A stretch of 64,000 nt of DNA, from assembly GCA_000091205.1 (NCBI GenBank), contig AP006499.2. One strand, written 5' to 3'. Positions 4,543-45,178 of the stretch are shown piece after piece. The position numbers were made by a program, and so were the translations under genes. The DNA comes from Cyanidioschyzon merolae. Taxonomy: Eukaryota. Numbering within the stretch: the first letter of the stretch is position 1; the number at the start of each line of letters is the position of its first letter. The notes beneath the pieces are model-generated. The model was not told where the DNA came from, did not search any database, and saw only the letters and a list, made by a program, of their open reading frames with translations.

Positions 4543-4738
4543 ATGAAGACCCGTCAATGTGCACTGCCTCGGGAGCGTCCGACCGCTGGATGTCGAGCGA
4601 ACTTGCCAATGAATCGTTTCGTACGCAGCATGGGCGTTAATCAAGTCCCGTCAATGTGCACTGCCTCGGGAGCGCCCGGCCGCTGGATGTCGAGCGAACT
4701 TGCCAATGAATCGTTTCGTACGCAGTATGGGCGTTATG
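4543..4738. repeat. local tandem duplication, 2 x ~98 bp (tgaagacccgtcaatgtgcactgcctcgggagcg...gggcgtta)
   Basis: A near-identical 98-bp block is repeated head-to-tail in the intergenic region between the ZIP gene and RPLP0. The short ORFs 4519..4872 and 4700..4960 reflect this duplication rather than coding sequence. Confidence 0.8.
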
Positions 4739-12001: not shown

Positions 12002-12845
12002 GAACTCCCGAGCCGCAGACCAGCTTGAACTAGACGGTTTGCCCGGAACACCCCCAGACTTTTATCGAGAGCGACAGAGGTCGCGCGTTGAGCGGTACCA
12101 GTCGCCGGCCGGTGCCCCGCTGCAGTGTTCGGTGCAGGTGCAGACTACGCAAGAGCACCCGCTTTGGACGTCACACGTGTGGAGCGGGGCTCGCGCTCTT
12201 GCCGACACCTTGTGTTGGCAGCCCGAGCTGATCGCGGGTAAGACCGTATGTGAACTCGGTGCAGGAGCTGGCCTGGTCTCGATTGTAGCGTTTCTAGCGG
12301 GTGCGGATCAGGTTGTCGCGACCGACTACCCGGATCCGGAAATACTCAACAGCCTAGAAAGCAATATCCGAGAGCATACGGCGAATAGCTGCAGTTCTGA
12401 AACAGTCAAAAGAGCCAGCCCAAAGGTCGTACCATATCGCTGGGGCGATTCGCCCGATTCTCTTCAACGATGTACTGGCTTGCAGCGTTTCCAAGTCGTA
12501 TTGCTAGCGGACCTGCTGAGCTTTCATCAGGCGCACGATGCACTCTTACGTAGCGTGAAGATGCTCTTAGCGCTGCCGGCCAATGATCCCACCGCCGTCG
12601 CACTGGTGACATTCACTCACCATCGCCCGCACCTTGCGGAGCGCGATCTTGCTTTTTTTCGCCTTGTGAACGCAGACGGAGCACTCATCGCTGAACCGTG
12701 GCTGTCACCGCTGCAGATGGATCCGATGTTCCCGGACGATCCCGGGGATGTCTGCATCAGGGGTCAGGTGCACCGCTGGCGCCTGCGCTGGCGCTCTGCG
12801 GCGAGCGCATCTGCTAATATCCCTGCTCATGCACGGAATGAGTGA
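12000..12845 (+). CDS. Methyltransf_16-type (FAM86/METTL21/Nnt1-like) SAM-dependent protein-lysine methyltransferase, 281 aa
   Basis: ATG at 12000-12002; the longer track ORF from 11676 has no upstream ATG. It carries the family motifs [12 protein letters not shown] and the SAM-binding motif [11 protein letters not shown] followed by [17 protein letters not shown]. The stop codon at 12843-12845 lies inside the first unit of a 68-bp tandem array. Confidence 0.7.
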
Positions 12846-13110
12846 CCTCGAGAAGCGCTATGCTGTATGCATTCGACACGCAAGCTTCTACGGCTACTCG
12901 TGTTGATGAGTGACCTCGAGAAGCGCTATGCTGTATGCATTCGACGCGCAAGCTACTACGGCTACTCGTGTTGATGAGTGACCTCGAGAAGCGCTATGCT
13001 GTATGCATTCGACACGCAAGCTTCTACGGCTACTCGTGTTGATGAGTGACCTCGAGAAGCGCTATGCTGTATGCATTCGACACGCAAGCTTCTACGGCTA
13101 TTCGTGTTGC
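12838..13110. repeat. minisatellite, 68-bp unit x ~4 (atgagtgacctcgagaagcgctatgctgtatgcattcgacacgcaagcttctacggctactcgtgttg)
   Basis: Four head-to-tail copies at >95% identity. Unit 1 begins 5 nt before the methyltransferase stop codon, so unit 1 holds the last two codons and the stop and the remaining units form the 3' flank/UTR. Confidence 0.9.
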
Positions 13111-23860: not shown

Positions 23861-24685
23861 GTCCCACTGCCACTAGTCATCAGCGTTCTACTGGGTCCGA
23901 GTGTCACCTGCTCAGGCACGTGTGCTTGCAACCCTGTCATTTTCAGATCTTTAGTACCGTACCACTAGTCATCAGCGTTCTACTGGGTCCGAATGTCACC
24001 TGCTCAGGCACGTGTGCTTGCAACCCTGTCATTTTCAGATCTTTAGTAACGTACCACTAGACATCAGCGTTCTACTGGGTCCGAGTGTCACCTGCTCAGG
24101 CACGTGTGCTTGCAACCCTGTCATTTTCAGATCTTTGGTACCGTACCACTAGTCATCAGCGTTCTACTGGGTCCGAGTGTCACCTGCTCAGGCACGTGTG
24201 CTTGCAACCCTGTCATTTTCAGATCTTTGGTAACGTACCACTAGTCATCAGCGTTCTACTGGGTCCGAATGTCACCTGCTTAGGCACGTGTGCTTGCAAC
24301 CCTGTCATTTTCAGATCTTTGGTACCGTACCACTAGTCATCAGCGTTCTACTGGGTCCGAGTGTCACCTGCTCAGGCACGTGTGCTTGCAACCCTGTCAT
24401 TTTCAGATCTTTGGTAACGTACCACTAGTCATCAGCGTTCTACTGGGTCCGAGTGTCACCTGCTCAGGCACGTGTGCTTGCAACCCTGTCATTTTCAGAT
24501 CTTTAGTAACGTACCACTAGACATCAGCGTTCTACTGGGTCCGAGTGTCACCTGCTCAGGCACGTGTGCTTGCAACCCTGTCATTTTCAGATCTTTAGTA
24601 ACGTACCACTAGACATCAGCGTTCTACTGTGTCCGAGTGTCACCTGCTCAGGCACGTGTGCTTGCAACCCTGTCATTTTCAGATC
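23861..24685. repeat. satellite-like tandem array, 92-bp unit x 9 (ccactagtcatcagcgttctactgggtccgagtgtcacctgctcaggcacgtgtgcttgcaaccctgtcattttcagatctttagtaccgta)
   Basis: Nine head-to-tail units with a few variable positions (tagtaccgta/tggtaacgta, agtcatc/agacatc, ccgagtg/ccgaatg). Each unit carries one perfect CACGTG (E-box/G-box) palindrome. The array ends ~200 bp upstream of the apyrase ATG. The 73-84-aa ORFs inside it (23839.., 24085.., 24290.., 24637..) are repeat artefacts. Confidence 0.92.
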
Positions 24686-27661: not shown

Positions 27662-30190
27662 TCAGAGAGCGGGTGGCAGTTTCGACATGTCCAGTGGCGC
27701 CAGGGAGAGCGGTGGCGAGTACCTGCGCACAAGCGCGGTACGCCCTGTTGTCGTTGTCGTCGTCTCCGTTCCGGTGAGCGCACTCGGGTCCGCAGAGCCG
27801 GCATCCGCGATACCCGCTGCGGAACAATGCTCCAGTGCAGTCGTGCCTGTGGTTGGCGATACCGTCGCGTTTCGCCCTGGTGGATACTGAGGCGTACCCG
27901 CCGATTCCAGTCGCAGCCGCAGTTCCCGATCAATACGCACCAGTTCCTGGTACACCTCTGCCATCGAGGGTCGCTTCTGTGGCTGCTCCTGTAGACAACG
28001 ATTCACGAGCTGTACATACGCGCGCTTATCCTCGTGCTGCTTGCCGGCAGGCACCAGCGGCATACTCAGGCAAAGTCCTTGAAAAGCCACCGCCACCAGC
28101 ACCTGCATCGGCTGTAGACCAGCAAACGGAATGCGTCTGGTGATCACCTCCCAGGCGACCACACCAAAAGAATACACGTCGCACTTCTCGTTGTGCGGTT
28201 CGTTACGAATGACTTCGGGAGCGGTCCATTCGGGCGTGCCTCCGGCAATGCGACTCGTGAGAAACGTTCGATGTTTCGCACGGGAGAGCCCAAAGTCCGA
28301 GATTTTCACCCGCCAGTTCTCGCTAACGAGGCAGTTCATGGACTTGAGATCCCGATGGATGATCGGTGGATGGCAAGCGTGAAGATACGTCATGCCACGA
28401 GCAGCGTCCTGCATCATGGCTAGGCGCCGACGCCAGGGTAGCCGCACGCGGCGCGACGGGTCTGCAGGCGTGTGCAGCAGGTCAAAGAGGCTCCCACGCG
28501 GCATCAACTCGATAACGATGCAGAGGTTCGGTGGTGCTACCACAGCACCGAAGAACTGCACGATGCACGGGTGACGCAGGTTTGCCATGATGTCGCATTC
28601 GGCGAGAAACTCGTCGAGTTCCTCCGCGGACAGCGCTCGATCGAGAAGCGAGCGTTTCACTGCGACCTCGGTGCCTCGCCAGAGCGCTCGATGCACCGAG
28701 CCAAAGCCCCCCGCCCCAATATGTTCCAGAATCTGCAGCTCGGACTCGTCAATACACCAGCGACGACGAGCGCTCACGAGCGACTGCTCAGGATCAGGCT
28801 GTGTACATCGATGACCGACTAGAACGGGGGCCCAGGCTGGCGACGATGGACCCCGGAGGCTGCCACTACTGCCACCGGCACCACCGCCATCACCACCACC
28901 GGCACCTCGTCGCTGTTGTGGTGTTCCCAGGGCGCTCGTGACCGTATTCGCCTGTTGTTGCTGTTGCTGTGAATCCGCAATCGTTGGCGTCGTATCACCC
29001 GTTTCGGAATCATTGGCGATATCTTCGTCCATGGGGACAGGCTCGGGTCGGAAGAGCTCCTCACTGGATCGACTCCGACCCGAGGCTCGTTCCACGTCGG
29101 TGTCGCTGGCAGGCTTGGCGTTGGCGGCCTTTTCGCGTTCGCGGCGTCGCTGACGCAGGTACCAGACACCAACGCCGCTGCCCAGCAGACAAGCGCCCAG
29201 CACAGGTAGCACAGTTGCCACCGCGATGACCCAGGGCGGAGCACCTCCGGTGCCCGAACCTGGCCCCTGGAGCGTGCTGGTCGTTGGTGCGACACCCAGC
29301 GTTTCAACAGTCCCGCCAACGAGTGTAATCGGTACACCAGCTGTCCCGCTCATGGCACCGGAATTGACGTAGTTCTGGAGACCCTGCGTCGCGTTCTCCG
29401 CTTCAACCCCGCGAGGAACAATTGCGGTATAGGTAGCGTATACGGAACCTGCGTACAAGTTCGTCAGATAGAACTGCGAGGCATCGAGTATGCCGTTTGT
29501 GCTATTTGCCATCCACCGTTTCAGCTGTTCGCTGTAGAGGCTGGTAAACTCCCCCAAGGTCAGATTACGAATGTAGAGCGTCGCCTCCATGTACAAATAG
29601 TTGCTGGCAGGCGAGGGCATTGCTGGTGTTGGTACCGGACGCGCTTGTTTCTGGCCAGTCAGGAAGGTGTCGGGCGTAGGCGACGCACTTGGTGCCATAT
29701 ACACTGGAATGTTCTCGTCGACGAGCGTAACGTTCACCGCCGCCGCTCGCGACAGCGCACCACTGTCAATCCAGTCCGTCAGCGCTATGCGGACGGAGCT
29801 CGCGATTCGTGTAGGTACCTGAATCATAAATACTGCAATCCGAACCCGAGGCTCATAGTTCGTGAGCGTCACGGGCGGCGCGTGGTGCACCGACGGATAG
29901 TGCCCCAGAATGAACTGCTGCAGGCCGGTTTCCAGCCTTAACATATCGTTCTCGTTCACGCTGCCGGAAGATGCGCTCACATTTAACCGTACCAAAAGCA
30001 GCTCATCGTCTCGTGGCCAGTTTGATGGTGTCGGGCTCGGCTGCGGCAACGAACTCACGAGTAACGTCGGCGTCAAGGAAACGGGCTCCACGAGCGGCAA
30101 CGTCGAGGTGGCACTCGCTGGCCCCGAGCACACCCCCAGGAGCGCTAAGATGACAAGAAAAACGATAAGGACCGCACGACTATTGGTCAT
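27662..30190 (-). CDS. single-pass transmembrane receptor-like Ser/Thr protein kinase (TKL-like), ~842 aa
   Basis: The likely start is the ATG on the reverse strand at 30188-30190, giving a signal peptide MTNSRAVLIVFLVILALLGVCSGPASA (the track ORF extends upstream to 30310). The ~380-aa extracellular domain has many NxS/T sites. The TM segment is PWVIAVATVLPVLGACLLGSGVGVWYL. The cytoplasmic kinase has GAGGFGSV...VAVK, HRDLKSMNCLV, DFGLS and GTPEWTAPE. A Gly/Gln-rich juxtamembrane linker is encoded partly by (caa/cag) repeats. Confidence 0.8.
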   Translation of the reverse strand: MTNSRAVLIVFLVILALLGVCSGPASATSTLPLVEPVSLTPTLLVSSLPQPSPTPSNWPRDDELLLVRLNVSASSGSVNENDMLRLETGLQQFILGHYPSVHHAPPVTLTNYEPRVRIAVFMIQVPTRIASSVRIALTDWIDSGALSRAAAVNVTLVDENIPVYMAPSASPTPDTFLTGQKQARPVPTPAMPSPASNYLYMEATLYIRNLTLGEFTSLYSEQLKRWMANSTNGILDASQFYLTNLYAGSVYATYTAIVPRGVEAENATQGLQNYVNSGAMSGTAGVPITLVGGTVETLGVAPTTSTLQGPGSGTGGAPPWVIAVATVLPVLGACLLGSGVGVWYLRQRRREREKAANAKPASDTDVERASGRSRSSEELFRPEPVPMDEDIANDSETGDTTPTIADSQQQQQQANTVTSALGTPQQRRGAGGGDGGGAGGSSGSLRGPSSPAWAPVLVGHRCTQPDPEQSLVSARRRWCIDESELQILEHIGAGGFGSVHRALWRGTEVAVKRSLLDRALSAEELDEFLAECDIMANLRHPCIVQFFGAVVAPPNLCIVIELMPRGSLFDLLHTPADPSRRVRLPWRRRLAMMQDAARGMTYLHACHPPIIHRDLKSMNCLVSENWRVKISDFGLSRAKHRTFLTSRIAGGTPEWTAPEVIRNEPHNEKCDVYSFGVVAWEVITRRIPFAGLQPMQVLVAVAFQGLCLSMPLVPAGKQHEDKRAYVQLVNRCLQEQPQKRPSMAEVYQELVRIDRELRLRLESAGTPQYPPGRNATVSPTTGTTALEHCSAAGIADAGSADPSALTGTETTTTTTGRTALVRRYSPPLSLAPLDMSKLPPAL

Positions 30191-30350
30191 TGCGACAGCA
30201 TACCGAGAAAACAGAACCCTTGCTTGTTTTTTGCTGCCGCCACTCGAGTACAGCCACAGCCAGCGAACGTTCCCAGTTTGGGTCCGCGCATCGAGTGAGA
30301 AACTGACCACGATTGTGGCGCTGCTGCCTCGATGCGAATGCGCCGCTGCG

Positions 30351-30720
30351 ATCCCAGACGTCTCCGGGCGCCTCGTACTGTTTCCTGATCAGAATTGTAT
30401 AGTAATAAACAATTATAGCAATATATATCTACCTTTGGTGTTGGGCGATTGCGGACAGCACCGTCGAGGAACCATCCCAGACGTCTCCGGGCGCCTCGTA
30501 CTGTTTCCTGATCAGAATTGTATAGTAATAAACAACTATAGCAATATATATCTACCTTTGGTGTTGGGCGATTGCGGACAGCACCGTCGAGGAACCATCC
30601 CAGACGTCTCCGGGCGCCTCGTACTGTTTCCTGATCAGAATTGTATAGTAATAAACAATTATAGTCATATATATCTATCTTTGGTGTTGGGCGAATGCGG
30701 ACAGCACCGTCGAGGAACCC
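30351..30720. repeat. tandem direct repeat, 123-bp unit x 3, in the 5' flank of the receptor-kinase gene
   Basis: The three units (30351, 30474, 30597) are >95% identical: atcccagacgtctccgggcgcctcgtactgtttcctgatcagaattgtatagtaataaacaa(t/c)tatag(c/t)(a/c)atatatatcta(c/t)ctttggtgttgggcgattgcggacagcaccgtcgaggaacc. Each contains an AT-rich TATA-like core. The array lies 160-530 bp upstream of the kinase ATG on the reverse strand. Confidence 0.9.
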
Positions 30721-31742
30721 AGTGACACACGGATGTGTTTTCGAGATGGACAATGGGCATTCGTCGTTCCTAGCATTCGAAAGGGTGTTGATGATGAGGA
30801 TAACGACCGCAGCGATCCCGATACGAAATCGGGGAATTAGTGTACGTCATTCATAGCATTCGACGGGTGTCAATAGGGATGTCCATGGCGGCGATCGCGT
30901 GACGGTTTCCGTACCTGGGGTTGTTGTAGGCGCAAGCGGTGCATATACGGACGTTTCCATCTGCGCTTCATTCTCGATTTGGCTCTTCTTGTTCGTATAC
31001 AGCATCGATGTGCGATTCGGAACTGGCATGCTAGCCTGTGGTTGATTGCGGGAGCGGCGTGCCCTCGTATGTCCGCCGTATCGCCTTCTCTGGAAGCTGC
31101 ACTGCAGTGCTTGAACGCTTGCTCCATCTCTCGGCAGTTGTTCTTCATGAGCACAGAGGGCTTGCCTCGGTGCGTCTCTCCGTGTTGGCGCCATATACCA
31201 TAGTGCGGAATTACCGCGTCGTTCTGGGCGATGCTGTCCGTGAATATGCTTTCTGGTGGAAGCGCGAGCGCATGCTTACTCGTGCGATAGAGGATTTGCA
31301 GAACGCGATGTTTTCCATGATGACACGCAAGAATCGCGAGAAAAATTAAGACTGGTGGAAGCATACGAAACTTTGCAACTGTCGCTGGTCCCATGACGCG
31401 AATCGACGACGCACTCTGTACTGAAAGGGATCGCTGTGATAACGAAGTCCGAATTCTAGACCCTTTTCTACGCACACACACACATACACACAGAGAAGAG
31501 CCGGAAGTCTCCGGAAGTATACCCCACGAGATGGATCATAGGGCTGCTGCGGGCCTGCCGTTTCGTCGATAGCCACAATGAGATGAGGATTTATCGTCGC
31601 AACGGAATCGATCATGTGATTTGAGAAGGTCACGAACTGGTCGGCAGGAGCTTGTGAAGAAATCGTCAAGGGACGCCGTCGAGGTTCTTCGCTCGTCAAA
31701 GTCATGCGACGGAGATCTTTGGACGCACGCTGTTGTTTGCTT

Positions 31743-33718: not shown

Positions 33719-36700
33719 TCAGCGTAGCTCATCATGACGGGTAGGGTGCATCGATTGCTCCCGCTGTGCAACGAATGCTTCCCAGGCGTGGTCATCGACC
33801 AGCGTCGCTGCTGCGGTAGCCTCTGTATCCAGTTCGTCCCAATGCGGAATGATACGGCGAGCGCTTTCGAGTTTCGACTCGTGTGTACTCGGATTATTAC
33901 AGAGATCAATGGTTTTGGCACGAGCCTTGCTCTGTTCGCTGCACCAGGTCTCGCACCAGAGCCATTCGGACGGTAGGGATTCGAGGGGAACCAGCGGTTC
34001 AGCAGCGTTCATGGTACCGCTTTGCTCAGCCAGCGGCACACTTGCATAGTTCGGCAGATCCTGGTCCAAATTCGAAAGCGACTCTGGATCGGCGCTCAGT
34101 CTCTGGTACAACGCTCGAAGCGTGTCACCGGCACGGTGTGCGCGAAAACGTTTCAGATCAACAACGAACAACGCTGATATGTGGTACGGTTGCCCGCGTA
34201 GGTGTTTCGCCCAGAATCCTCGCTTCCAAAACCGATACGCATCCATTTCGGGACGATCGTCACAAAACGGCACGAAACCGTAGACAGCACGTGATCCGAG
34301 GGCCAGCTCCCAGAGCTCACCGAGGTCACCGCGAACCACTTGATCCGAATCGATGAAGATGATACGTTCCACATCCGACGGGAACAAAACATCTAGGAAT
34401 AAAATCTTATACGCCCAGATCAGGCGCTGTTTCTCGTGCTGCGGCCGTAGCCATCGAGGCCAGGCATACCATACCAGTTCGTAGTCGAAGCCGAGGCGAT
34501 GTGCTAGTCGTGGCAACTGGGCACGAAACCTGGGCGACAGAAAGTTGCCCACCAGCCAGAACTTGCAGCGATACCTCGGTGTCGCTCGGACCGCACTCAG
34601 CATCATGATTCGAAGCAGTCGTTCGTACAAATGCCCAGAGGCAATCGAGAACAGATGTATCAGAGGACGCTTGTCCGCTGATGATGACGACGACGATGAT
34701 GCGCTCGGCGGTAGACAGAGACGCTCGCGACGCTGCACTTGTGACGACGTCCGAAGGGCAGCGACGAGCGCCCAGACGCGCTCATACCAGGTACGTTGCA
34801 GGTGCGCCACACGCAATAGCAGCAGCGGCTGTGACTGTGTCGACTGGCCCCACAAGTCGTCCACAACCAATAACGTGGCGTTGCTGGCATCGATCGGCTG
34901 CAGGTCCACAAGTCTAGCGGCATAAGGCGCGCGTTGCGCCTCGACAAGGGCAATCGAGAGGTCATCGCGTTGCCTCCCGAACGCCGAGGGAATCGGTATC
35001 GGCACAAGACGCCAAATGCCCGGTGTCAATGCCAGCTGAAAGTAGCCGGAACCCTCCATCACGACAGTCTCGACCCGAGACCGACGCTCACGACTGCAGT
35101 GATCCGGGTGTCGAATGCCGCCATGCTGCTCCAGGCGTAACGCGAGGCCAGGTGCTCGTGTAGACGGCTGCCGATCGACGACGAAGCCCTCTACGATGAG
35201 CTTGCTCAGTTCGTATCGAATGGAGCGATGCGAAGGCGTACCTGGGGGTGCCCACTGCACCAGTGCCACATTGTCTGGATCCAGCTCAGCATGCTGCACT
35301 GTTGTGAACCAGGTTGCTGGTGTCCGCAGGTGAACGCTGTGGATCCGGTGCTCGGCAAGTCGATCGAAGATGACGCTGGCGCTGGTACCGTTCGCCAGGG
35401 CATCTGCGAAACGCGTCACCAGCTTGGAGCGTACGTACCGCGGCTGGAGCAGGCGTCCGTCATCGCCTCGCCACTGGAGTCGCGGGTTCAGCGTGACATC
35501 GAGTTCAGCGTCGAGTGCTTCGCCAAGTAACTTGCGTAGCACCAGGGTGAACGAAGCATCAGCGGCTGTGAATGGTGCAATGAGGCCCTCTGCTCGCAGC
35601 GCGCTTCCAGTGTGCTGCCTGGGTACTGCGGGCGCCTTGCGATACCGCAGTGCAGGCACCAGGTGCCGCAAACGACGAAGCGAGTCAAGCGGTAGCTCGC
35701 TGGGCGACTGCTGCACTAGAAGCGATCCGCCACTGGGCCTGCAGCTTCCATCCAAAACGTCTGCGAGGATCGTGGAGATCAAGACCGCATCCGCTTGATG
35801 CGACTGATCCACAGGGCTGCAGCGCCCAGATAGCGGCTTTGTTTGCCGAATGATGTACGAGCCGCAACGAGCCTCCATCAGAGCCGCTTCCCGCTGGAGG
35901 ACAGCCTTGAAGAGCGCAGCGGCGTGATGTGCCCAAACCTCGTCCCGATCGATTCGATACCGTCTACCGTTGACAACGAGCGCTAGTTGACCTGGGTCGA
36001 CGCCCCAGCCGCCAGAGAACAACAATCGGAGCCAATTTGGTGCTGGTGTGCCCGTTAGGGTAGGCGCTGTGGATGCAGGGCTCACCTCCACGCCACCACA
36101 GATGCGCTCCAGGCGCCGTCTCAGGGCGTCATCGAGTTGCATCGAAGAGCGCGACGCATTCGCAGGTGTCGCTGTCCACAGCTGCATAAGCGATCGAGCA
36201 ACTGGGCCCGCCTGGAGACCCGTATGAAAGAGCCCGAGTCGTACCGCAGACGGCCATGCAGCTGCTCCCGGATGGTGTGACGGTTGCGTCCACTGCTGTT
36301 CCGCGAGTACGCGCATCGCATCGTGGAGAAACCTGCAGCCGAAAGTTGTATCCAGGTCGAGAAGAAGCCACACGGTCAATGGCGGCTGGCATCCATCGTC
36401 GTGGGCGTCAGCCGCATCCACAACTGCCAAGCGATACGGGATGTTCAGGAGATGCACTGCATCGCCCTGGGTATGCTGTTGCTGCTGTGCAAAGAGCGCA
36501 TCCCAGAGCAGTGCAATCGACTGCAGGCCCTGCTCGATGTGCTCCTGCTGTAGCGCTGTCGATCCCGAGACCAGCTGGGATGTTGCTGAGAGCAACTGCG
36601 TCTCAAAGGCCGGCACAAGCACCAGTCTCGTTGCCAGAACCGCAGCAGTGGCGCTCTCCTTGCGTCTAGGCGATGGATACGGCCCTGGTGTGACCGTTGT

Positions 36701-39496
36701 CGATGTGCGCCAGCTCGATGTCTGGTAGACAACGTCGTCCACACAGGCTGCGTCGGGAGCGAGTCCCGCGCGTGTCAGCTCAGCGAGTCGCTGCACTTCA
36801 GCGTTCAGGTATCGAAAGACGGTGGACGCATCTACGGGATCCTTTGCAAGGTCGCCGATGCGCTTTCCATTCAGAGCTAGCAACGCTGACGTATCGGCAG
36901 GCAGACCAATGCTCCGTAGCCACTGACGAGTGCGTACTTCCGCGTGCACCAGCATCGCGCACTGGCTCGAGTCGTGAACCTTTGCAGCAGCAGCAGCGCC
37001 GCCGCTGCGGAGACCGAACAACGCACCCAAGACTCGCTTCTTGCCGTGCGGATGTAGAATCAGCGATTCGTAGTCGTGTTCGGCATCGAAGCTGGACGAG
37101 GTCTGATTCGGAGAAGCCGCTTGCATGCCCGCTGCTGTCTGGAGGAAGACGCGTCGGACCTGGTCAGCTCTTGGTGGTAACGGCGGCAGCGCGATGGTGC
37201 TCGAGCGGCCCCCGAGTCCCTGCAGCATCCACAGTGCAGCGAGCGGGTGTTCCCGCTGTACCGTTGCGTGCAACTCGCTCAGAAACGAGGCCGCTGCTCG
37301 TCGGGAACGCCGCACATGCAGCAAGTAGTATACTGCTCGGCAGATGACCGCATCCGTTGACGGTTCCAATGGAGAGCGCCTTGGGGGGAGCTCCCCAGGC
37401 GACTGGAGATCACCGCGTCTCCATCCCAGCGACCTCAGCATGCCCAGAGCGCGCGACCAAGGAGAGCGTGGTGCACCCGCGGTGTCACCGGCTGAAGCGT
37501 TCCACCGGTACGCTGCCTCATGCGGTGGCACCAGCACCAGCGATATCTGAAAGGGAAGGACGGGGTCGCGGTTCTTGACCCATTGGATCAACTGAGCGGA
37601 CGCTTCGAGTCCAGCCGCGGAGCCTGGGTTCACAAAGGCCACCAGCCGGAAAGCGTTTCGACGTAGTTTCGGAAATGCCTTTGCGCTGGGGCTCTGCAGC
37701 AGCTCCTGGAAGCTCGGACTCCAGTTCTGGTATTTGCGATCCCGCTCTATGTCATTCAGGCGGAAAATGAAAAGCTGCTCCACCGATTGTACAGGATCGC
37801 TGTCGGATTCCTCTGTACAATCTAAGAGTGCCGGTAGGTAGAGGCGCGTATCGACGATTGTCGTACTTGCTTCAGCTTCGCTTTGACGATGGGTGATGTT
37901 CGCAAGAAAGCGTTCTCGATCATCAATCGCCGCTGTTTTCAGCGGATCCATCATGTCCCAGATACGGTAAGCAGCCAAATGTGCGGCAGCGATGCTGGCG
38001 GCACAGAGCGCCACCGATGAAGCGTCTGGGCTGACCTGTCGTCCATTGAGAAATAAGACCGAAGGCAGGTTGTCCCAGTGCAGTTCAGGATGCAGGCGAC
38101 TGAGGTTCTCCGCAGACGCTGTGAGCAGAGCTCGGCTTTGCGCCACGGAAGCCGCAAACGAAGGCTCTGCCTTGGCCTCCTTCCAGAGAGCGGCGCCAAT
38201 GCTCGGAAGATCATTGCCCAGCTGCTCGATACCCTGCAGCAGCGATCCCGTCAGGTCCATCAGCAACTCCTCTAGCGTTTCAGATGCACCAGTGTGCTTC
38301 GTCGCTTCCGACCAAAGCGATTGCATGAGCAGCGCATCCAGAGTCGCTTGGATTTCATCCTTATCGAGGTCCTGAATGTCGATCGCAACAGATCCTGCGG
38401 CACCACGCTGTCTGACATGTTGCGTCTTGTTGCGCTGCAACCAGAGCGTCTCGTTCTGCTTCGTGTCTAGCACCACGTAATCGGAGCTTTTCAGCGCCAG
38501 CTCTACTGTGTAGCCGCTTAATGACATCATCTGCGTCGCGTCACTGGAAAAGTCGGCCGTTAGCGCCGCTCGACTCGGTGCCGCTCTCCGCATCCGAATG
38601 ACGTAGACGAGCTCGCAGTTCTGGGCACGTTCACGGACTGCACGATGAAAAGCGGAGAACGCATCGTCACGGAAAACATCTGTGTACAGAATGGCAGCGA
38701 TGAGCGGTTCAGTACCAGACTGATCGGTCCAGCGTTTGTCGCCCGGGACATGCGGCGCTGCTGCACTGCCACCGACACAGCCCAGGACCGTATCCGACGG
38801 CAGCAGGAAGCGTTGGGAGGCAAGATTCCAGCGATGTACCTCGTCTATGTTTCGCGGGAAGCGACTGCGACAAGCATCAACATGATGACCAAGGGAAGCG
38901 AGCGCTGCTTCATCGGCGATCGGGATGCGTTCCGCACCGCATACGAGGAGTACCCACGTGGAGTCTACTGCGTTCAGAGCGGGCTCCAGCTGATCGCGAT
39001 CGTCCGTCTCCAAACGCTCATGGAGCTGTAGGCGTGCGGCGTAAACACGCTGGACAACGAGTACTTCCAAACTTCTCCACGCTTGGCGAACCGCTGCAGT
39101 CAACGCGTCAGCCTCTACTGAGGAAGTCAGATCAGCGGCAGCTGCGGTCCACGCAAGCTCCAGCCGCGTTCGCAGCCAGCGTATGGCACTGAGCTCGCGC
39201 TCCGAGTCCGAGTTAGCGCTGCGAAGTAGATCAGTCCCGTCCGCGATCTGGTCCAATAAACTCCAGAACAAGCGATCTGAATATATTCTGCGTATGCCTT
39301 CTAAAAGCTCTAGCGGCAACGATGATGCGTTCCAGGGTGCTACTACGTCAACGTGGAGTGCCTTCACGCTGCGCCGCACCGCTGCAGGCAAAAAACTCTG
39401 CGAAATACCGATACATAATGATGCACAGATTATCAGCGTATACACCGCGCATACCCACAGTCCTAATGAGAAACGTTGTCGCCCGAAGCTCCGCAT
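33719..39496 (-). CDS. UGGT: UDP-glucose:glycoprotein glucosyltransferase (UGGT; ER folding sensor), ~1925 aa
   Basis: The C-terminal GT24/GT8-like catalytic domain is unmistakable: LIHLFSIASGHLYERLLRIMMLSAV, KFWLVGNFLSPRF, IFIDSDQVVRGDLGELW, PFCDDRPEMDAYRFWKRGFWAKHL, YHISALFVVDLKRFR, and LPNYASVPLAEQS...EWLWCETWCS...IDLCNNP. The best start is the ATG on the reverse strand at 39494-39496, which gives a canonical signal peptide (MRSFGRQRFSLGLWVCAVYTLIICASLCIG). The track ORF runs on upstream to 40144 through a 65-bp repeat array, but that stretch lacks an ATG context. The protein ends ...HDELR, i.e. an HDEL motif followed by one extra Arg. Confidence 0.8.
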   Translation of the reverse strand: MRSFGRQRFSLGLWVCAVYTLIICASLCIGISQSFLPAAVRRSVKALHVDVVAPWNASSLPLELLEGIRRIYSDRLFWSLLDQIADGTDLLRSANSDSERELSAIRWLRTRLELAWTAAAADLTSSVEADALTAAVRQAWRSLEVLVVQRVYAARLQLHERLETDDRDQLEPALNAVDSTWVLLVCGAERIPIADEAALASLGHHVDACRSRFPRNIDEVHRWNLASQRFLLPSDTVLGCVGGSAAAPHVPGDKRWTDQSGTEPLIAAILYTDVFRDDAFSAFHRAVRERAQNCELVYVIRMRRAAPSRAALTADFSSDATQMMSLSGYTVELALKSSDYVVLDTKQNETLWLQRNKTQHVRQRGAAGSVAIDIQDLDKDEIQATLDALLMQSLWSEATKHTGASETLEELLMDLTGSLLQGIEQLGNDLPSIGAALWKEAKAEPSFAASVAQSRALLTASAENLSRLHPELHWDNLPSVLFLNGRQVSPDASSVALCAASIAAAHLAAYRIWDMMDPLKTAAIDDRERFLANITHRQSEAEASTTIVDTRLYLPALLDCTEESDSDPVQSVEQLFIFRLNDIERDRKYQNWSPSFQELLQSPSAKAFPKLRRNAFRLVAFVNPGSAAGLEASAQLIQWVKNRDPVLPFQISLVLVPPHEAAYRWNASAGDTAGAPRSPWSRALGMLRSLGWRRGDLQSPGELPPRRSPLEPSTDAVICRAVYYLLHVRRSRRAAASFLSELHATVQREHPLAALWMLQGLGGRSSTIALPPLPPRADQVRRVFLQTAAGMQAASPNQTSSSFDAEHDYESLILHPHGKKRVLGALFGLRSGGAAAAAKVHDSSQCAMLVHAEVRTRQWLRSIGLPADTSALLALNGKRIGDLAKDPVDASTVFRYLNAEVQRLAELTRAGLAPDAACVDDVVYQTSSWRTSTTVTPGPYPSPRRKESATAAVLATRLVLVPAFETQLLSATSQLVSGSTALQQEHIEQGLQSIALLWDALFAQQQQHTQGDAVHLLNIPYRLAVVDAADAHDDGCQPPLTVWLLLDLDTTFGCRFLHDAMRVLAEQQWTQPSHHPGAAAWPSAVRLGLFHTGLQAGPVARSLMQLWTATPANASRSSMQLDDALRRRLERICGGVEVSPASTAPTLTGTPAPNWLRLLFSGGWGVDPGQLALVVNGRRYRIDRDEVWAHHAAALFKAVLQREAALMEARCGSYIIRQTKPLSGRCSPVDQSHQADAVLISTILADVLDGSCRPSGGSLLVQQSPSELPLDSLRRLRHLVPALRYRKAPAVPRQHTGSALRAEGLIAPFTAADASFTLVLRKLLGEALDAELDVTLNPRLQWRGDDGRLLQPRYVRSKLVTRFADALANGTSASVIFDRLAEHRIHSVHLRTPATWFTTVQHAELDPDNVALVQWAPPGTPSHRSIRYELSKLIVEGFVVDRQPSTRAPGLALRLEQHGGIRHPDHCSRERRSRVETVVMEGSGYFQLALTPGIWRLVPIPIPSAFGRQRDDLSIALVEAQRAPYAARLVDLQPIDASNATLLVVDDLWGQSTQSQPLLLLRVAHLQRTWYERVWALVAALRTSSQVQRRERLCLPPSASSSSSSSADKRPLIHLFSIASGHLYERLLRIMMLSAVRATPRYRCKFWLVGNFLSPRFRAQLPRLAHRLGFDYELVWYAWPRWLRPQHEKQRLIWAYKILFLDVLFPSDVERIIFIDSDQVVRGDLGELWELALGSRAVYGFVPFCDDRPEMDAYRFWKRGFWAKHLRGQPYHISALFVVDLKRFRAHRAGDTLRALYQRLSADPESLSNLDQDLPNYASVPLAEQSGTMNAAEPLVPLESLPSEWLWCETWCSEQSKARAKTIDLCNNPSTHESKLESARRIIPHWDELDTEATAAATLVDDHAWEAFVAQREQSMHPTRHDELR

Positions 39497-39835
39497 CAGC
39501 ACCTCGGCTGCCAGCTCATGCGGAAAGCACCTGGCTGGCAGGGCGTAGCAGGCTTGAGCGGCGACAGCGCGGTAGCATCCGCTGCCGCCTCGGCTGGGAA
39601 TCGCTCCTGCCTGCGTCTGTGTTGGGCCTTCGTTCAACCAGGTACACCAGGGGCCGTGCTTGCGCTCGAGAGCGCTATGCAGGAGGAGGTGCTTTCGTCG
39701 TCCAGTGCGCACCGTTGGACTCGATGCATACTCCCGTGCTGCTTGCTGGTACGTTCGTTGCCAGCGTAAGCTGCTTTGACTGCCTGGTGTTAATGCTGGG
39801 GCAAAGGCCGGGCGTTTGATGGTGTAGTCTGAAGT

Positions 39836-40035
39836 CAATGCATGGGATCTGGTGTTTCCGGAAGCACGCTCGTTGTAGGTAGTCGTGGAATCGACGTCTG
39901 GTACGCATGAGATCTGGTGTTTCCGGAAGCATGCTCGTTGTAGGTAGTCGTGGAATCGACGTCTGGTACGCATGAGATCTGGTGTTTCCGGAAGCATGCT
40001 CGTTGTAGGTAGTCGCGGAATCGACGTCTGGTCCC
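39836..40035. repeat. tandem repeat, 65-bp unit x 3, 340-540 bp upstream of the UGGT start; each unit contains the palindrome TTCCGGAA
   Basis: Three units start at 39846, 39911 and 39976 (gatctggtgtttccggaagc(a/c)(c/t)gctcgttgtaggtagtcgtggaatcgacgtctggtacgcatga). Because 65 is not a multiple of 3 and the unit is stop-free on the reverse strand, it generates the spurious N-terminal extension of the UGGT ORF and ORF 39675..40196. Confidence 0.9.
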
Positions 40036-40346
40036 TCACGAGCGCTGCAGCGTTTCTGGGCGAGCTCGAGATCGATCTTCTCGTTGGGTGTATCTCGTCG
40101 CTCGATCCGACGAGCTTTCGGGTGCTGCGTGTTCTGGTGGACACTTGTCACGTCGCTGCTAGGTGCGCTGCCCCTAGTTTTCCCGAGGGGCACCACGGCT
40201 TTGTCATAGATGCAGGGGTATGAGGTAGTCGTACCGATGAGGACGCATGGTGCTGCGGCGAGTCGCTAGCGCCCAGACTCATACCCGTTTCACCACCGCT
40301 GCGGTGGATAGCAGGCCATCGACGTCAAGATGTAATGTATTGGAGA

Positions 40347-41674
40347 GATCGTAGACGAATTGCCCGTAGGATATATTCTCTACTGAATAGTGCAAGGGGA
40401 CTGCATTCCTCTTCCGAGTCGGTCACATCATAGTACTCTGATGACTGGGGAACACTGAGCGCAACAAGTAGATACGCTCCGCGCCAAAAAGATGGTATTA
40501 TCAAAGCGTGTTTGTGGTCATTCGTGGAAAACGACCCGTTGATTACCTCACAGAAACCAAAATCAACGATGATATACGCCACGGGTGCTTCTGTTTATCA
40601 TCAGCTTGTTCGTGTCGTCCTATAAATACTGGGATAAAATCACAAAGAAGTCCAGTTGCACATACGGGCATCTACCGAAATCGCAACTAAAACATAGTTC
40701 ATGGAATGTCACGACTCGTGTGAAGCGCTGGAACGTCGTTCTATTTCCGCAGTCGATGTCGCTTTCTTCGGATGAAGCGGTCGGAGCGCGTACGGATATT
40801 CGCGGAGAAGGGCCCTGTTGGACGTTCGATCGAACGCGAAGACAACGAGGACATTATCATTTATTCTAGCTTTAGAAGATGTATTTGGTGGCCTCAGTTT
40901 CGCTCGTAAAAAAGACTCATGCACTAGCGCCAACCAGTTTGTCCAAGCACTAAAGACTTTTCCTTGATGTCTGGTGACGTCCTTCCATTGGACAACGCGA
41001 CATTTCACCGTTCTTCTCGTGTCCGAGCTGTTGCCGATTTTATCCGGTCAGGGCTGCTTTTTATTCCTTATTACCCCTCGAATTTTTGAATCCAGCAAAG
41101 GAGTTTTGTCTATCGTGAAAAGTTATTACCGCTGCACTGGGAAAATCGCTGAAGCGCTCAGCACACCGCAACAAACCGAAGCACTTCGTGTTTCTTCCAC
41201 AAGTCCTTGTCCATCCGTGAAGGTCCGTTCCTGTGAGCATAAACAAGAACGTTTATTTTCAAAAATTAAGACATCAGCTGGGGCGTACAATGTAAAAGGT
41301 CGAGATGGAGAAGACCCAGCGGAGCGTCTCGGCGATAGAAAAGCCCTGAGAACTGATACAGCACCAAATTGCACAGAGCGCAAGCGTTCGAGGACTCCTT
41401 GCAATGGTGACTTCCACCCGCGGCAATGCACGCAAGGAGTCTGTGAATCGAGACTTTAACGGTGCAATCAATATCAGGGGATGTGTGGTACTATAGACGA
41501 CACCTGCGGAGCTGACGCCATCTAACTTTAAGTAGCAACCTCTCAGGCTCGAGATGTACAGGAAGAAACTGAAACCGATCGCAGGATGCCGGTCAAAAAA
41601 GCCCAGGTGGCGTCAACGTGTAGACAGATACATTTGTCCTCCATGTTCATGAAACATTCTTCGTATCGCTGATC
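40347..41674 (+). mobile_element. degenerate Tc1/mariner-superfamily DNA transposon relic, copy B (1328 bp)
   Basis: The left end gatcgtagacgaattgcccgtaggatatattc and the right end ...cattcttcgtatcgctgatc form imperfect terminal inverted repeats (~13/17 matches, beginning GATC). The HTH remnant is VENDPLITSQKPKSTMIYATGASVYHQLVRVVL. The catalytic remnant is MSGDVLPLDNATFHRSSRVRAVADFIRSGLLFIPYYPSNF, which keeps the DNAxxH and PPYSP-like blocks. The C-terminal remnant is ...VEMEKTQRS...VRGLLAMVTSTRGNARKESVNRDFNGAINIRG, followed by a conserved non-coding subterminal block. The reading frame is broken in several places. Confidence 0.6.
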
Positions 41675-42613
41675 ATGTCTACACGTAGACCAGCCGCTGA
41701 CGCATGGTCCAGCGGCGGAGACGGCATGCATTCAGTGCATTCCATAAATATACAGATTGGTGTATGTTTTGGGGCAGGGCCTTTTTTGGGTCAACGGCGT
41801 CTCCCGGCAGCGGTTCCTCGTCAGCATCGGTGCGCTGCTCACGTCGCTGACCTTCGACGGATGAAGTCTCCCAGAGAAAGTGTCTCTTTTATCGCGCCGC
41901 TGAGTGTCCGGGTAGCTCAAGCGAGCTCGCCAGCGTCCGGGCGCTGGGAGCGTCCGCGGCTGCTGGGGAAGGGTGCTCCGCTGGTGCCGCTGCGACGTCG
42001 TCCACAGGCCCGGGTACACGCGGCGCTGCGCTTACGTTGCGTCGAAGGCACCGATTCCTTGAAAGGCATTCAGGTCGACTGTGAGCAGAAGATGGAGAAG
42101 ACTATCGTCTCGCTCCGGAATAACCTGGCAGCGATTCGAACGAGTCGTGCCTCGCCTGCCTTACTGAACCGCATCCAGGTCAAGTACTACGGGGTTGACA
42201 CACCGCTGCTCCAACTAGCGAGTATATCGACGCCGTCTAGTACCGCCCTCCAGATTGAACCATACGACAAGTCGTGTCTAGGGGACATTGAGCGTACCAT
42301 TGCGGAAAGTGACCTAGGACTGACTCCATCCAACGACGGCAACGTGATACGACTGAACGTGCCACCGCTTACCGAAGAGCGACGAAAGCAGCTCGTCAAG
42401 GCTGCCAAGGAAATGGCAGAGGAAAGCCGCGTTGCCTTGCGCAATATCCGTCGCACCGGCGTGGATGCGGTGAAAAAGCTCGAGAAAGGGAGCGAAATCA
42501 GCAAGGATTTGAGCGCTGACGCCCAGGATGAGCTCACGAAAATGATCAAGCGATTTGAGGCAAAAGTCGATGAAATCATGCGCGCCAAAGAAAAAGATAT
42601 CATGACCGTGTAG
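41675..42613 (+). CDS. organellar (mitochondrial-type) ribosome recycling factor, 312 aa including an N-terminal presequence
   Basis: The conserved RRF domain starts near IQVDCEQKMEKTIVSLRNNLAAIRTSRASPALLNRIQVKYYG and continues through EPYDKS, GLTPSNDGNVIRLNVPPLTEERRKQLVK and EESRVALRNIRR to the C-terminus. The ~125-aa N-terminal extension is Arg-rich, acid-poor and presequence-like. The first ATG at 41675 immediately abuts the right end of transposon copy B, so a downstream ATG (for example the Met at MKSPRESV) may be the true start. Confidence 0.8.
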   Translation: MSTRRPAADAWSSGGDGMHSVHSINIQIGVCFGAGPFLGQRRLPAAVPRQHRCAAHVADLRRMKSPRESVSFIAPLSVRVAQASSPASGRWERPRLLGKGAPLVPLRRRPQARVHAALRLRCVEGTDSLKGIQVDCEQKMEKTIVSLRNNLAAIRTSRASPALLNRIQVKYYGVDTPLLQLASISTPSSTALQIEPYDKSCLGDIERTIAESDLGLTPSNDGNVIRLNVPPLTEERRKQLVKAAKEMAEESRVALRNIRRTGVDAVKKLEKGSEISKDLSADAQDELTKMIKRFEAKVDEIMRAKEKDIMTV

Positions 42614-44111
42614 AGGCTAGTCCTGGTTTGCTCGTTCGTTGGTCGGTGCAGGCGATCGCCGGCTCGTAGGGACGGACGCTCTGCAGCGCCTGGAGCGAGG
42701 CAGAGCGGGGCAATCCAGTGTGGACTGCTGTGTCTTGGTGTATGTGCATACGTTCTTGTGTCGAATCAAGGACGGGCAGCGACAGTTGCTGCTGCTGCTG
42801 CTGCTGAAGCTGTGCGCGATCACGCTTATCTTGTGTGGTTTCCGGAACGCTTCAGATCGTAGCTGAGAGTAAATATCGGCCGTCTATGGACACTGGAATC
42901 CCTGCTTCGCTAGAAGGAGCACTTTTGATCAAGTTCTACCAGCACTGCCAGGAACAGCACCGGGGGGTCTCCTTGCGCTTGTCTTCGAGCAGGAATCCCC
43001 GGGATCAGTTGATATTGGCCGAAGAATCCAGGTCCGTACAATCTACATCATCAACACACGGGATTTACAGCGTTTATGCTGGAAACGTTGGGAGCGATTC
43101 GCAACTGGCACCGCAAAGATGCAGTTGGCTCTTTGAAAATGACTGAATCCGTGTCTCTGATGTATACGAATCCAGATATATTTGATGCAATCGATTCAGA
43201 GAGGTGTCTGACATGTGCCGTAGTTCAAACGTCTATGTTGCACGTGTAGTGCACCATCTCAGGCGACAGCATAGCGACAGGGCACATGGCTTGCAAGCTG
43301 GCAGCGCTATGTACTCGCAGCCTGGCGGGCCGCGTGCGGTACCCTCTCGATGCACCACTCGTTGTCGACGGTGGCAAAGACAGGCATGTTGATTCACAGC
43401 ACATGGTGTTCTTTGCGACAGCGAGGCGCAGTTGTACGTACCAGGTAGTTCGGGGCGCTCGTTCTCGATGCATCGTCGCGAATGCTAGCCACACCTGCAA
43501 CCAGGTCCAATGCCCGCGTCGTATGGGCCGTTGCAGCGTCCCTGGAGAGACTGATTTGCGTACGCATCGAGACGGAGTCGCGCAGCGTTCTGCGCTCTCG
43601 CCCAATCACTGGAGCAGCATCGGAGAGAGATGAAATCATATCTTGGCGTCCTTGCTCTTACAAGACGAATCCGTCGTGCGACAGACCAGTAGGCAGCACG
43701 ACGGTGCAGTGCTTGAGCATCCACTGTAGCGCCGCAGTGCAGAGGCGCTTTTCGCCGCCCAGAACTAGGCTGCAGCAAGTTCTGAAGGCGTGTCCATCTC
43801 GAAGGGAACCTGAACCCGGCTTCAGAAGCGTAAGAGCGAGCGACACCGGCGATGGTTACTTCGTGTTCCTTGCGCATGAATTGCCACCACCGATCCGATA
43901 GTGTCGCGAACAATTAGTGAAACAGGAGGTAGACCAGCGTGTCCGTGTTACCGCAAATACTCAAGTCTATTGAATGCTAGATACGGATTTGGAATCCGTT
44001 TCCGCATCATTCCGAACGAGGACGATATGACCGCGCGTCTACAAGTTGAGGCTCGAGGGCGCTCGCGAGGATCCTGCACGACCGAGCCCGCTATGTCGGC
44101 TGCAGCGCATC

Positions 44112-44852
44112 TCAGAACACTGTTATCAATGCGAACGAGGTGTACCAGAGACCTACAGGATACGCCACCAGGGGCCAGTTCCCCGCAGGGATTGCGAGAA
44201 CGGCAGTGAATATTCTGCTTGCCGTGCTGGTGCACCAGAGCACAGCAACGCCGGCCATAATCGCCCGGAACGCGAGCGGTGGCACCAATAATACCAAGAA
44301 CGCCAGTACCACAATAGGTAGCAGCCCGTAGCCCAGAACACTTACGATACGATAGAGATCAAGTTCTCTACCTGCCATGAGGTTCAACACCAAGTAGATG
44401 CTAAGACAACCGACAATCGCAATACCATAGATCACACCAAAGTGTACTTTTCCTCGCAAGAGCAGCGCCATGCCCAGTAGAAAAGCGTACAGCAGGGGCC
44501 CAGCCATATCCGGTTCGTCAGCGAATGATTTTTCAAAACGGCGGAGCGGGTTGAGAACCTGAAGGCTCTTGCGCCAAATGGCTTCAGGATGGATCCCCAG
44601 CTCTTCCAGCAGCGGTGGTTCGTCTTCTCCCACAGACGCTCCGGAGAGCGCCCTTCCCAGTTCAAAAGAGGCACTGCGGGCGTGCCAGCTCGTTGTCGCA
44701 CTAGGGTGCCGCTGGGGTTCCCTAACCGTCGACCAGGCCGGGGCAACGCTCACCGCATTGTCCTGATAGAGTGTCGACGGCCCGGTGCTGTACGGCACAC
44801 TCGAGCCGCCGTAAAACTCCAAACCGTTACCTTCGCGAGCCCCGCCACTCAT
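44112..44852 (-). CDS. Yip1-domain (YIPF) Golgi membrane protein, ~246 aa
   Basis: The start is the ATG on the reverse strand at 44850-44852 (the track start at 44867 is TTG). The N-terminal cytosolic region carries the family signature DEPPLLEELGI. Five hydrophobic helices follow (PLLYAFLLGMALLL, FGVIYGIAIVGCLSIYLVLNL, VLGYGLLPIVVLAFLVLLV, IMAGVAVLWCTSTASRIFTAVL, VAYPVGLWYTSFALITVF). Confidence 0.75.
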   Translation of the reverse strand: MSGGAREGNGLEFYGGSSVPYSTGPSTLYQDNAVSVAPAWSTVREPQRHPSATTSWHARSASFELGRALSGASVGEDEPPLLEELGIHPEAIWRKSLQVLNPLRRFEKSFADEPDMAGPLLYAFLLGMALLLRGKVHFGVIYGIAIVGCLSIYLVLNLMAGRELDLYRIVSVLGYGLLPIVVLAFLVLLVPPLAFRAIMAGVAVLWCTSTASRIFTAVLAIPAGNWPLVAYPVGLWYTSFALITVF

Positions 44853-45178
44853 CGTACTTGCCGCCAAAACAGACCCAAGTCGGAACTGTTTGCCCGTCGG
44901 TCTGCTCGTCCGTTCGTTCCGCCAATTAGAGAATATCCAGTGCTGGTTACGGGACTTGTGTTTCGGCGAGCACCAGACTCGGACCCTGAAACTGTTGGCT
45001 GTGGCGGGTCGACGCGCCCCCCCGCGGACAATACCACCTGGGCAGCGGGGCGCACGTGCACTACGGCAGCAGTCCGCGTACCGCTGCGGTTTCGATCGTC
45101 CTCGTGGATCGTCTTGTGATGTTCGTTATTATGGATATGACGCTGGTAACGAAGCATGCTTCCCGGTGTTTATCGTTG

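Follow-up and report, generated by a model that had tools for sequence, protein, structure and literature searches.

A copy-number-variable 65-bp tandem repeat upstream of the UGGT gene of Cyanidioschyzon merolae, probably a minisatellite, and the very probably mis-set start codon of the reference UGGT model

A head-to-tail array of three 65-bp units, 97% alike (39840-40034), lies upstream of the gene for UDP-glucose:glycoprotein glucosyltransferase (UGGT) in strain 10D of Cyanidioschyzon merolae, an acidothermophilic red alga with almost no introns. The array is probably a neutral or nearly neutral, strain-variable minisatellite (VNTR) produced by unequal exchange or slippage, and by comparison of the available sequences it appears to be young, locus-specific and variable in copy number. 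Its demonstrable effect is on annotation, namely on the position of the UGGT start: the reference UGGT model very probably carries a false N-terminus of 167 residues that represents translated repeat. A first-pass annotation of the same DNA had proposed that the array is a multimerized heat-shock element; judged from the motifs present, that reading is unsupported.

Structure and setting of the array

The array was detected with TRF in the 64-kb window (the whole stretch of DNA that was analyzed) as a 65-bp unit present 3.0 times at 39840-40032, with 97% matches and a score of 365. Minisatellites are built of tandem units of about 10-100 bp, vary in copy number and contain interspersed variant repeats; with a period of 65 bp in head-to-tail order, the array has the unit size and arrangement of this class. 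The features referred to below are as follows.

33719..39496, minus strand: UGGT coding sequence, 1925 aa; begins MRSFGRQRFSLGLWVCAVYTLIICASLCIG (signal-peptide-like) and ends RHDELR
39497..40144, minus strand: 216-codon in-frame ORF extension, read here as spurious; stop-free unit, with the frame kept by 195 bp
39497..41674: divergent intergenic region between UGGT (minus strand) and the ribosome recycling factor gene (plus strand); contains the array
39840..39904: repeat copy 1, type A (G6, C28, T47, A64); UGGT-proximal; identical in 11 of 11 locus sequences
39905..39969: repeat copy 2, type H1 (A6, T28, T47, A64); chimeric, its 5' part being that of B and its 3' part that of A
39970..40034: repeat copy 3, type B (A6, T28, C47, C64); distal; holds the start codon of the reference annotation
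39856..39863 (copy 1), 39921-39928 and 39986-39993: TTCCGGAA palindrome; two-module TTCnnGAA, no three-module heat-shock element
39995..39997, minus strand: ATG of the reference annotation, in the GCATGC palindrome of copy 3; codons 2-4 (CTT CCG GAA) are the TTCCGGAA palindrome
41675-42613, plus strand: ribosome recycling factor (RRF) gene, divergent to UGGT
44112-44867: Yip1 gene
Elsewhere in the window: ribosomal protein P0 gene, whose protein is identical to the C. merolae 10D entry XP_005538311.1

The copies start at 39840, 39905 and 39970, and the differences between them are confined to unit positions 6, 28, 47 and 64. The first-pass description of a three-unit 65-bp repeat with one perfect palindrome per unit was accurate, TTCCGGAA being found at 39856, 39921 and 39986. 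Its placement of the array 340-540 bp upstream of the UGGT start also agreed with the 344-538 bp obtained here from the ATG at 39496; the distance to the RRF ATG is 1641 bp. A scan of the whole window against Rfam gave no family at the gathering threshold. Folding of the array DNA was like that of shuffled sequences (z=-0.63), so that instability driven by hairpins is not indicated.

On the other side of the intergenic region, the RRF domain of the ribosome recycling factor ORF is preceded by about 146 residues, likely an organellar targeting extension. The start codon of this gene is also uncertain. Metagenome gene calls begin 17 codons downstream (295 versus 312 aa), which accounts for the finding that an exact look-up of the RRF protein of the window returned no record.

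Alleles differ by one whole unit

The locus was compared in 11 sequences, comprising 10D and 10 environmental contigs that were collected by a UGGT homology search (hot-spring metagenome clusters), by contig look-ups and by a scan for a 25-mer core of the unit; about six haplotypes were distinguished by flanking SNPs. Nine contigs carry the two-copy arrangement A-B, and three copies are present in 10D (A-H1-B) and in contig L005 (A-H2-B). The alleles differ by exactly one 65-bp unit, the whole-unit difference between strains that is expected of a VNTR. The middle copy has the states A6, T28, T47 and A64 in 10D and A, C, C and A at the same positions in L005; SNPs within the array are limited to 39932 and 39951, which correspond to unit positions 28 and 47 of the middle copy. 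H1 is an exact chimera with B at positions 6 and 28 and A at positions 47 and 64, and H2 is made only of states found in A or B, a pattern of variants consistent with unequal exchange or conversion. Within copies A and B no SNP was seen across the haplotypes versus 2.24 expected, a depletion that is not significant (P=0.11).

Between copies A and B, 4 of 65 positions are different (~6%). This is well above the divergence between haplotypes in the intergenic flanks, roughly 1%, and suggests that the first duplication took place before the sampled strains diverged. In the gene-proximal region 10D and L005 are each other's nearest neighbors (10 differences), so that one gain with conversion afterwards is just as possible, and independent origin of the two three-copy alleles is for the same reason not claimed.

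De Bruijn assemblers can collapse short tandem repeats, and repeats lie at or close to the ends of several contigs (L001 stops 47 bp past the array, and L006-L011 stop near a 118-bp array). It is nevertheless highly improbable that the array is fixed at three copies and that the copy-number differences are artifacts of short-read collapse from three to two. The metagenome assembly of L005 recovered three copies, with a middle copy different from that of 10D, and recovery of a three-copy allele in an independent assembly means that the two-copy state is not just assembly collapse. The two-copy state was moreover found in nine contigs from both JGI and Logan assemblies, representing about four haplotypes, and these contigs span the array and reach unique flanking sequence at either end.

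The UGGT start codon

The minus-strand ORF 33719..40144 (2141 codons, from a GTG) is that of UGGT (Glyco_transf_24, E=2.6e-121), with thioredoxin-like domains (Thioredoxin_12) from ORF residue 274. The true start is very probably Met217 of this ORF (ATG at 39496, MRSFGRQ), which gives a protein of about 1925 aa. The reference protein, XP_005538319.1 / BAM82283.1, has 2092 aa, begins MLPETPDLMRTRRRFHDYLQRACFRKHQISC and is identical to the ORF from Met50.

The extension upstream of Met217 is open because the unit has no stops on the minus strand and because three units (3 x 65 = 195 bp) keep the frame. As the first-pass annotation had stated, the reverse strand of the array is stop-free in all three frames; the forward strand has stops in all three. 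Such openness is not unusual: of 65-mers drawn at random from the window, 17% have no stop on a given strand. Since 65 is not a multiple of 3 (195 bp being 65 codons), each of the three copies is read in a frame of its own, and it is the three-copy allele that puts the copy-3 ATG in frame with UGGT and yields the 2092-aa reference model. In the two-copy alleles the in-frame open stretch upstream of MRSFGRQ is 158 codons long and contains no Met.

That UGGT does start at the copy-3 ATG, with an N-terminal extension derived from the repeat as annotated, is scarcely credible, even though the ORF is open, the in-frame ATG is present in 10D and L005, and the reference annotation uses it. Neither the frame nor the start codon is kept across the alleles, as an indel of 65 bp shifts the frame, and the two-copy alleles already contradict a coding repeat. 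The extension is not shared by orthologues. The orthologue P0002 (1914 aa, 46% identical) has its own signal peptide, begins at the equivalent of Met217, and aligns from its residue 10 to ORF residue 234. The composition of the extension is not coding-like either, with GC by codon position flat at 0.57/0.61/0.61 versus 0.66/0.49/0.62 in the coding sequence. Read from the sequence, the signal-peptide-like MRSFGRQRFSLGLWVCAVYTLIICASLCIG would be buried by such an extension. Based upon the two-copy alleles, the orthologue alignment, the signal peptide and the codon-position GC, the array and the ORF extension are judged to be non-coding.

The first-pass warning of a misleading 216-codon N-terminal ORF extension upstream of Met217 was correct, and the case proved stronger than stated, in that the reference protein itself starts inside copy 3. 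A false N-terminus would mislead signal-peptide prediction, the design of localization constructs and alignments, and the start of the UGGT model should be moved to MRSFGRQ (1925 aa).

Several further features of the gene were observed. A 7-codon uORF (39496-39519) begins with an ATG at 39519 on the minus strand, encodes MSWQPRC* and has a TGA stop overlapping the start codon of UGGT (TGATG); in L001, a SNP at 39497 (position -1) abolishes its stop. Either the UGGT 5' leader is shorter than 23 nt or the uORF is tolerated. The C-terminus reads ...RHDELR in C. merolae (33719-33745, minus strand) and in the 46%-identical orthologue (L002 15720-15745), so that a conserved additional arginine comes after HDEL, the ER-retrieval motif, which therefore does not stand at the extreme C-terminus. 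Protein length across strains was 1924, 1925 or 1928 aa through a variable poly-alanine tract (...SGGAAAAAKVH...), which is a coding trinucleotide-repeat polymorphism.

Heat-shock and other palindromic motifs

A canonical heat-shock element (HSE) consists of at least three contiguous inverted nGAAn modules (PMC4206486, PMC4224343). In the array only the adjoining pentamers TTTCC and GGAAG match the module, and the flanking pentamers, TGGTG on one side and CATGC or CACGC on the other, fail nGAAn, so that a third contiguous module is not present. A three-module HSE was found neither in the 64-kb window nor, at one mismatch or fewer, in the UGGT-RRF intergenic region, and searches of 39497-41674 on both strands gave no gap-type or step-type HSE (modules 5 bp apart). 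What the first-pass annotation had called the core architecture of an HSE therefore comes down to two modules.

TTCCGGAA occurs five times in the window versus 0.84 expected from shuffling, with three occurrences in the array and two unrelated ones at 42840 and 60039. The three array sites are one site copied, and counting a motif once per unit of a tandem repeat does not turn one observation into three; the number of independent sites is therefore three, which is unremarkable. The shorter motif TTCnnGAA was found 25 times in the 64-kb window, or about 23 times if the array is counted once, versus 15.6 +/- 3.8 expected. Many of these sites are in coding sequence, and the window holds no HSP gene for comparison. 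Neither an occurrence beyond chance nor one specific to stress promoters emerged from these counts, and the two-module TTCnnGAA is too common to be called a heat-shock element.

Besides TTCCGGAA, the unit contains the palindromes AGATCT, GCATGC (extended: AGCATGCT) and GACGTC. The 65-bp unit thus has four 6-bp palindromes versus 1.1 expected (P ~0.03) and two 8-bp palindromes (P ~0.03-0.04). In the window GACGTC was at chance frequency (24 versus 24.6 expected), as was CGACGTCT (4 versus 3.8), and a bZIP/UPR-type reading of GACGTC was rejected because the motif is at chance frequency, likewise CGACGTCT. AGCATGCT was commoner than in shuffled sequences (6 versus 1.6); these are five independent sites, four of them outside the array, of which three fall in coding sequence.

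Neighboring arrays and a syntenic relative

Seven further arrays with periods of 33 to 130 bp were found in the window with TRF. Between 1275 and 47547, arrays start at 4546, 12838, 15815, 23870, 30351, 31742, 39840 and 46068 and make up 2496 of 23680 intergenic bp (10.5%). Two of these eight (4546-4736 and 12838-13109) are flanked by convergent gene ends and cannot be promoter elements, which means that such arrays are not promoter-specific; the other arrays are in promoter-containing regions. The seven longer minisatellite units together contain 25 six-bp palindromes versus 10.9 expected from the intergenic background (P ~2e-4, or ~9e-4 without overlapping AT-run counts).

Some neighboring arrays also varied in length between 10D and L005. 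A 92-bp array (23870-24685, x8.9, 200 bp upstream of an apyrase gene) was shorter in L005 by 552 bp, or six units, and a 123-bp array (30351-30719, x3, adjoining a kinase gene) was shorter by 123 bp, or one unit. These lengths make the two arrays additional VNTR loci, subject to the reservation that repeats can be collapsed when short reads are assembled. Between 10D and L005 the arrays with 118-bp and 130-bp units, both of two copies, were stable. The arrays that are polymorphic between environmental C. merolae haplotypes, namely the array upstream of UGGT and the 92-bp and 123-bp arrays, are possible simple strain-typing markers. The 123-bp x3 array is spanned by a 271-codon ORF (29910-30725, plus strand) that has no Pfam match; as 123 bp is 41 codons, this ORF was probably created by a stop-free repeat.

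The first-pass annotation had accepted that wide occurrence of the 65-mer at non-promoter sites as a generic minisatellite would tell against its reading. A dispersed family was not found: in the metagenome scan the 25-mer core occurred only at the UGGT locus, and neither in the rest of the window nor in L002 was the 65-bp unit matched significantly. Arrays of this kind did, on the other hand, prove generic in this DNA.

In the syntenic relative L002, gene order is unchanged from the aminotransferase through to the photolyase gene and the spacers are more compact; its UGGT is 46% identical. None of its spacers contains a tandem repeat, that upstream of UGGT included, and arrays are almost absent from this relative. 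TTCCGGAA was not found in the 25.7 kb of L002, nor TTCnnGAA in its 1137-bp UGGT intergenic region. Footprinting of the UGGT-RRF intergenic region between C. merolae and L002 gave no significant alignment (best E = 0.5); conservation of the motif upstream of the orthologous gene was thus not seen, and because the two regions are unalignable its absence from L002 is weak evidence.

The C. merolae genome has been described as unusually simple. In the literature that could be searched, non-telomeric minisatellites were not reported from Cyanidioschyzon; searches on minisatellites of C. merolae and on the regulation of UGGT or of ER stress yielded only telomere papers and inventories of N-glycosylation genes.

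Origin and possible function of the array

The array probably arose as follows. A 65-bp segment would have been duplicated once, giving copies A and B, before the sampled strains split. In the lineage of 10D a third copy would then have been added by unequal sister-chromatid exchange or replication slippage with B and A misaligned. A breakpoint between unit positions 28 and 47 would produce the B-5'/A-3' structure of H1; this structure is observed, and the exchange or slippage is the proposed route to it. For H2 in L005 one further conversion or mutation would be needed. TTCCGGAA would have been carried along passively with the duplicated segment, and most likely the array is under little or no selection. 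Some observations run counter to neutrality: its position, 344-538 bp from the ATG, would suit an upstream promoter element, palindromes are modestly enriched in the unit, three HSFs exist in C. merolae and may use atypical sites, and copies A and B lack SNPs in every haplotype, although not significantly so.

The proposal that each unit is a putative HSF site (TTCnnGAA), multimerized into a stress-responsive enhancer of UGGT, is very unlikely. Pairs separated by 65 bp do not provide a single HSF trimer with contiguous modules, and each unit offers two modules with flanks that fail the consensus, in an intergenic region that yielded none of the three HSE types searched for. The motif itself is frequent in the window and often coding, it is absent from the orthologous intergenic region of L002, as is the repeat, and the 65-mer core is found at no other gene. 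UGGT is stress-induced in several other eukaryotes, for example Arabidopsis (PMC4465474), and TTCCGGAA is a perfect inverted GAA pair in every copy of every allele. Multimerization into a stress device, as first claimed, is nonetheless unsupported, since the two-module motif is common and the copy number varies as in the neighboring arrays, most natural haplotypes having two copies and not three. In favor of HSF binding, C. merolae encodes three HSFs (PMC4224343), and the 345-bp upstream region of the sHSP gene, the best-studied heat-shock gene of this alga, lacks a typical three-module HSE (PMC4206486), so that non-canonical sites may be used in C. merolae.

An influence of two versus three copies on UGGT or RRF expression, not necessarily as a heat-shock device, also seems unlikely, if less remote a prospect than a true heat-shock enhancer. 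Such an influence could depend on how many palindromic factor sites are present (TTCCGGAA, AGCATGCT, GACGTC, AGATCT), or on spacing and the positioning of nucleosomes. It would fit the position of the array in a divergent intergenic region a few hundred bp from the UGGT ATG, the natural variation in copy number, the palindrome content of this unit and of the seven units together, the excess of AGCATGCT and the lack of SNPs in copies A and B, the last not being significant. GACGTC and CGACGTCT are, however, at chance frequency, the AGCATGCT sites outside the array are mostly coding, similar arrays occupy 3'-3' regions that contain no promoter, and nothing is conserved in L002. In addition, 200 bp of the sHSP upstream region are the optimal heat-inducible promoter in C. 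merolae (PMC4206486), so that this length is enough for a regulated promoter, and the array is farther out.

A more specific version can be imagined, in which the array is a 'dosage dial' whose two or three palindrome-rich modules (TTCCGGAA, AGCATGCT, GACGTC) would bind a dimeric factor, possibly HSF at a non-canonical two-module site, and tune UGGT to local thermal regimes. This is quite improbable. If it were true, hot-spring C. merolae populations would vary the copy number of a module controlling UGGT, an ER folding sensor, and regulatory variation would arise generally from palindrome-enriched minisatellites, which make up about 10% of the intergenic DNA here. As far as the sequence can tell, nothing found here points toward an effect of the array on expression, and a neutral or nearly neutral minisatellite remains the preferred reading.

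Comparison with known systems

The array resembles canonical HSEs in having one inverted pair, TTCnnGAA, per unit. It differs from them in that a third module and the gap- and step-type variants are lacking, the pairs are 65 bp apart, and the motif is frequent by chance and not conserved in the orthologous promoter.

Variable tandem repeats in yeast promoters reportedly modulate expression, as Vinces et al. are said to have found in 2009. Human promoter VNTRs that modulate expression include MNS16A (PMC5438627) and INS-VNTR (PMC3012191). Like these, the array is variable in copy number, lies a few hundred bp upstream of a gene and has short palindromic motifs that scale with copy number; unlike them, it is known from sequence alone, and similar arrays in the window are also found outside promoters. 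Were the array to affect expression, it would be a small natural case of promoter-repeat tuning in an extremophile.

The UGGT model is closely similar to other ORF extensions and mis-set starts generated by repeats, in which an upstream ATG is brought into frame by a stop-free repeat whose summed length is divisible by three and is then selected by automated 'longest ORF' logic. The difference is that at UGGT the natural two-copy alleles are a built-in frameshift test that exposes the error.

In structure the array resembles minisatellite and VNTR loci. The array consists of head-to-tail 65-bp units, its alleles differ by whole units, its variant positions are shuffled among A, B, H1 and H2 as from unequal exchange or gene conversion, and the arrays that neighbor it behave alike.
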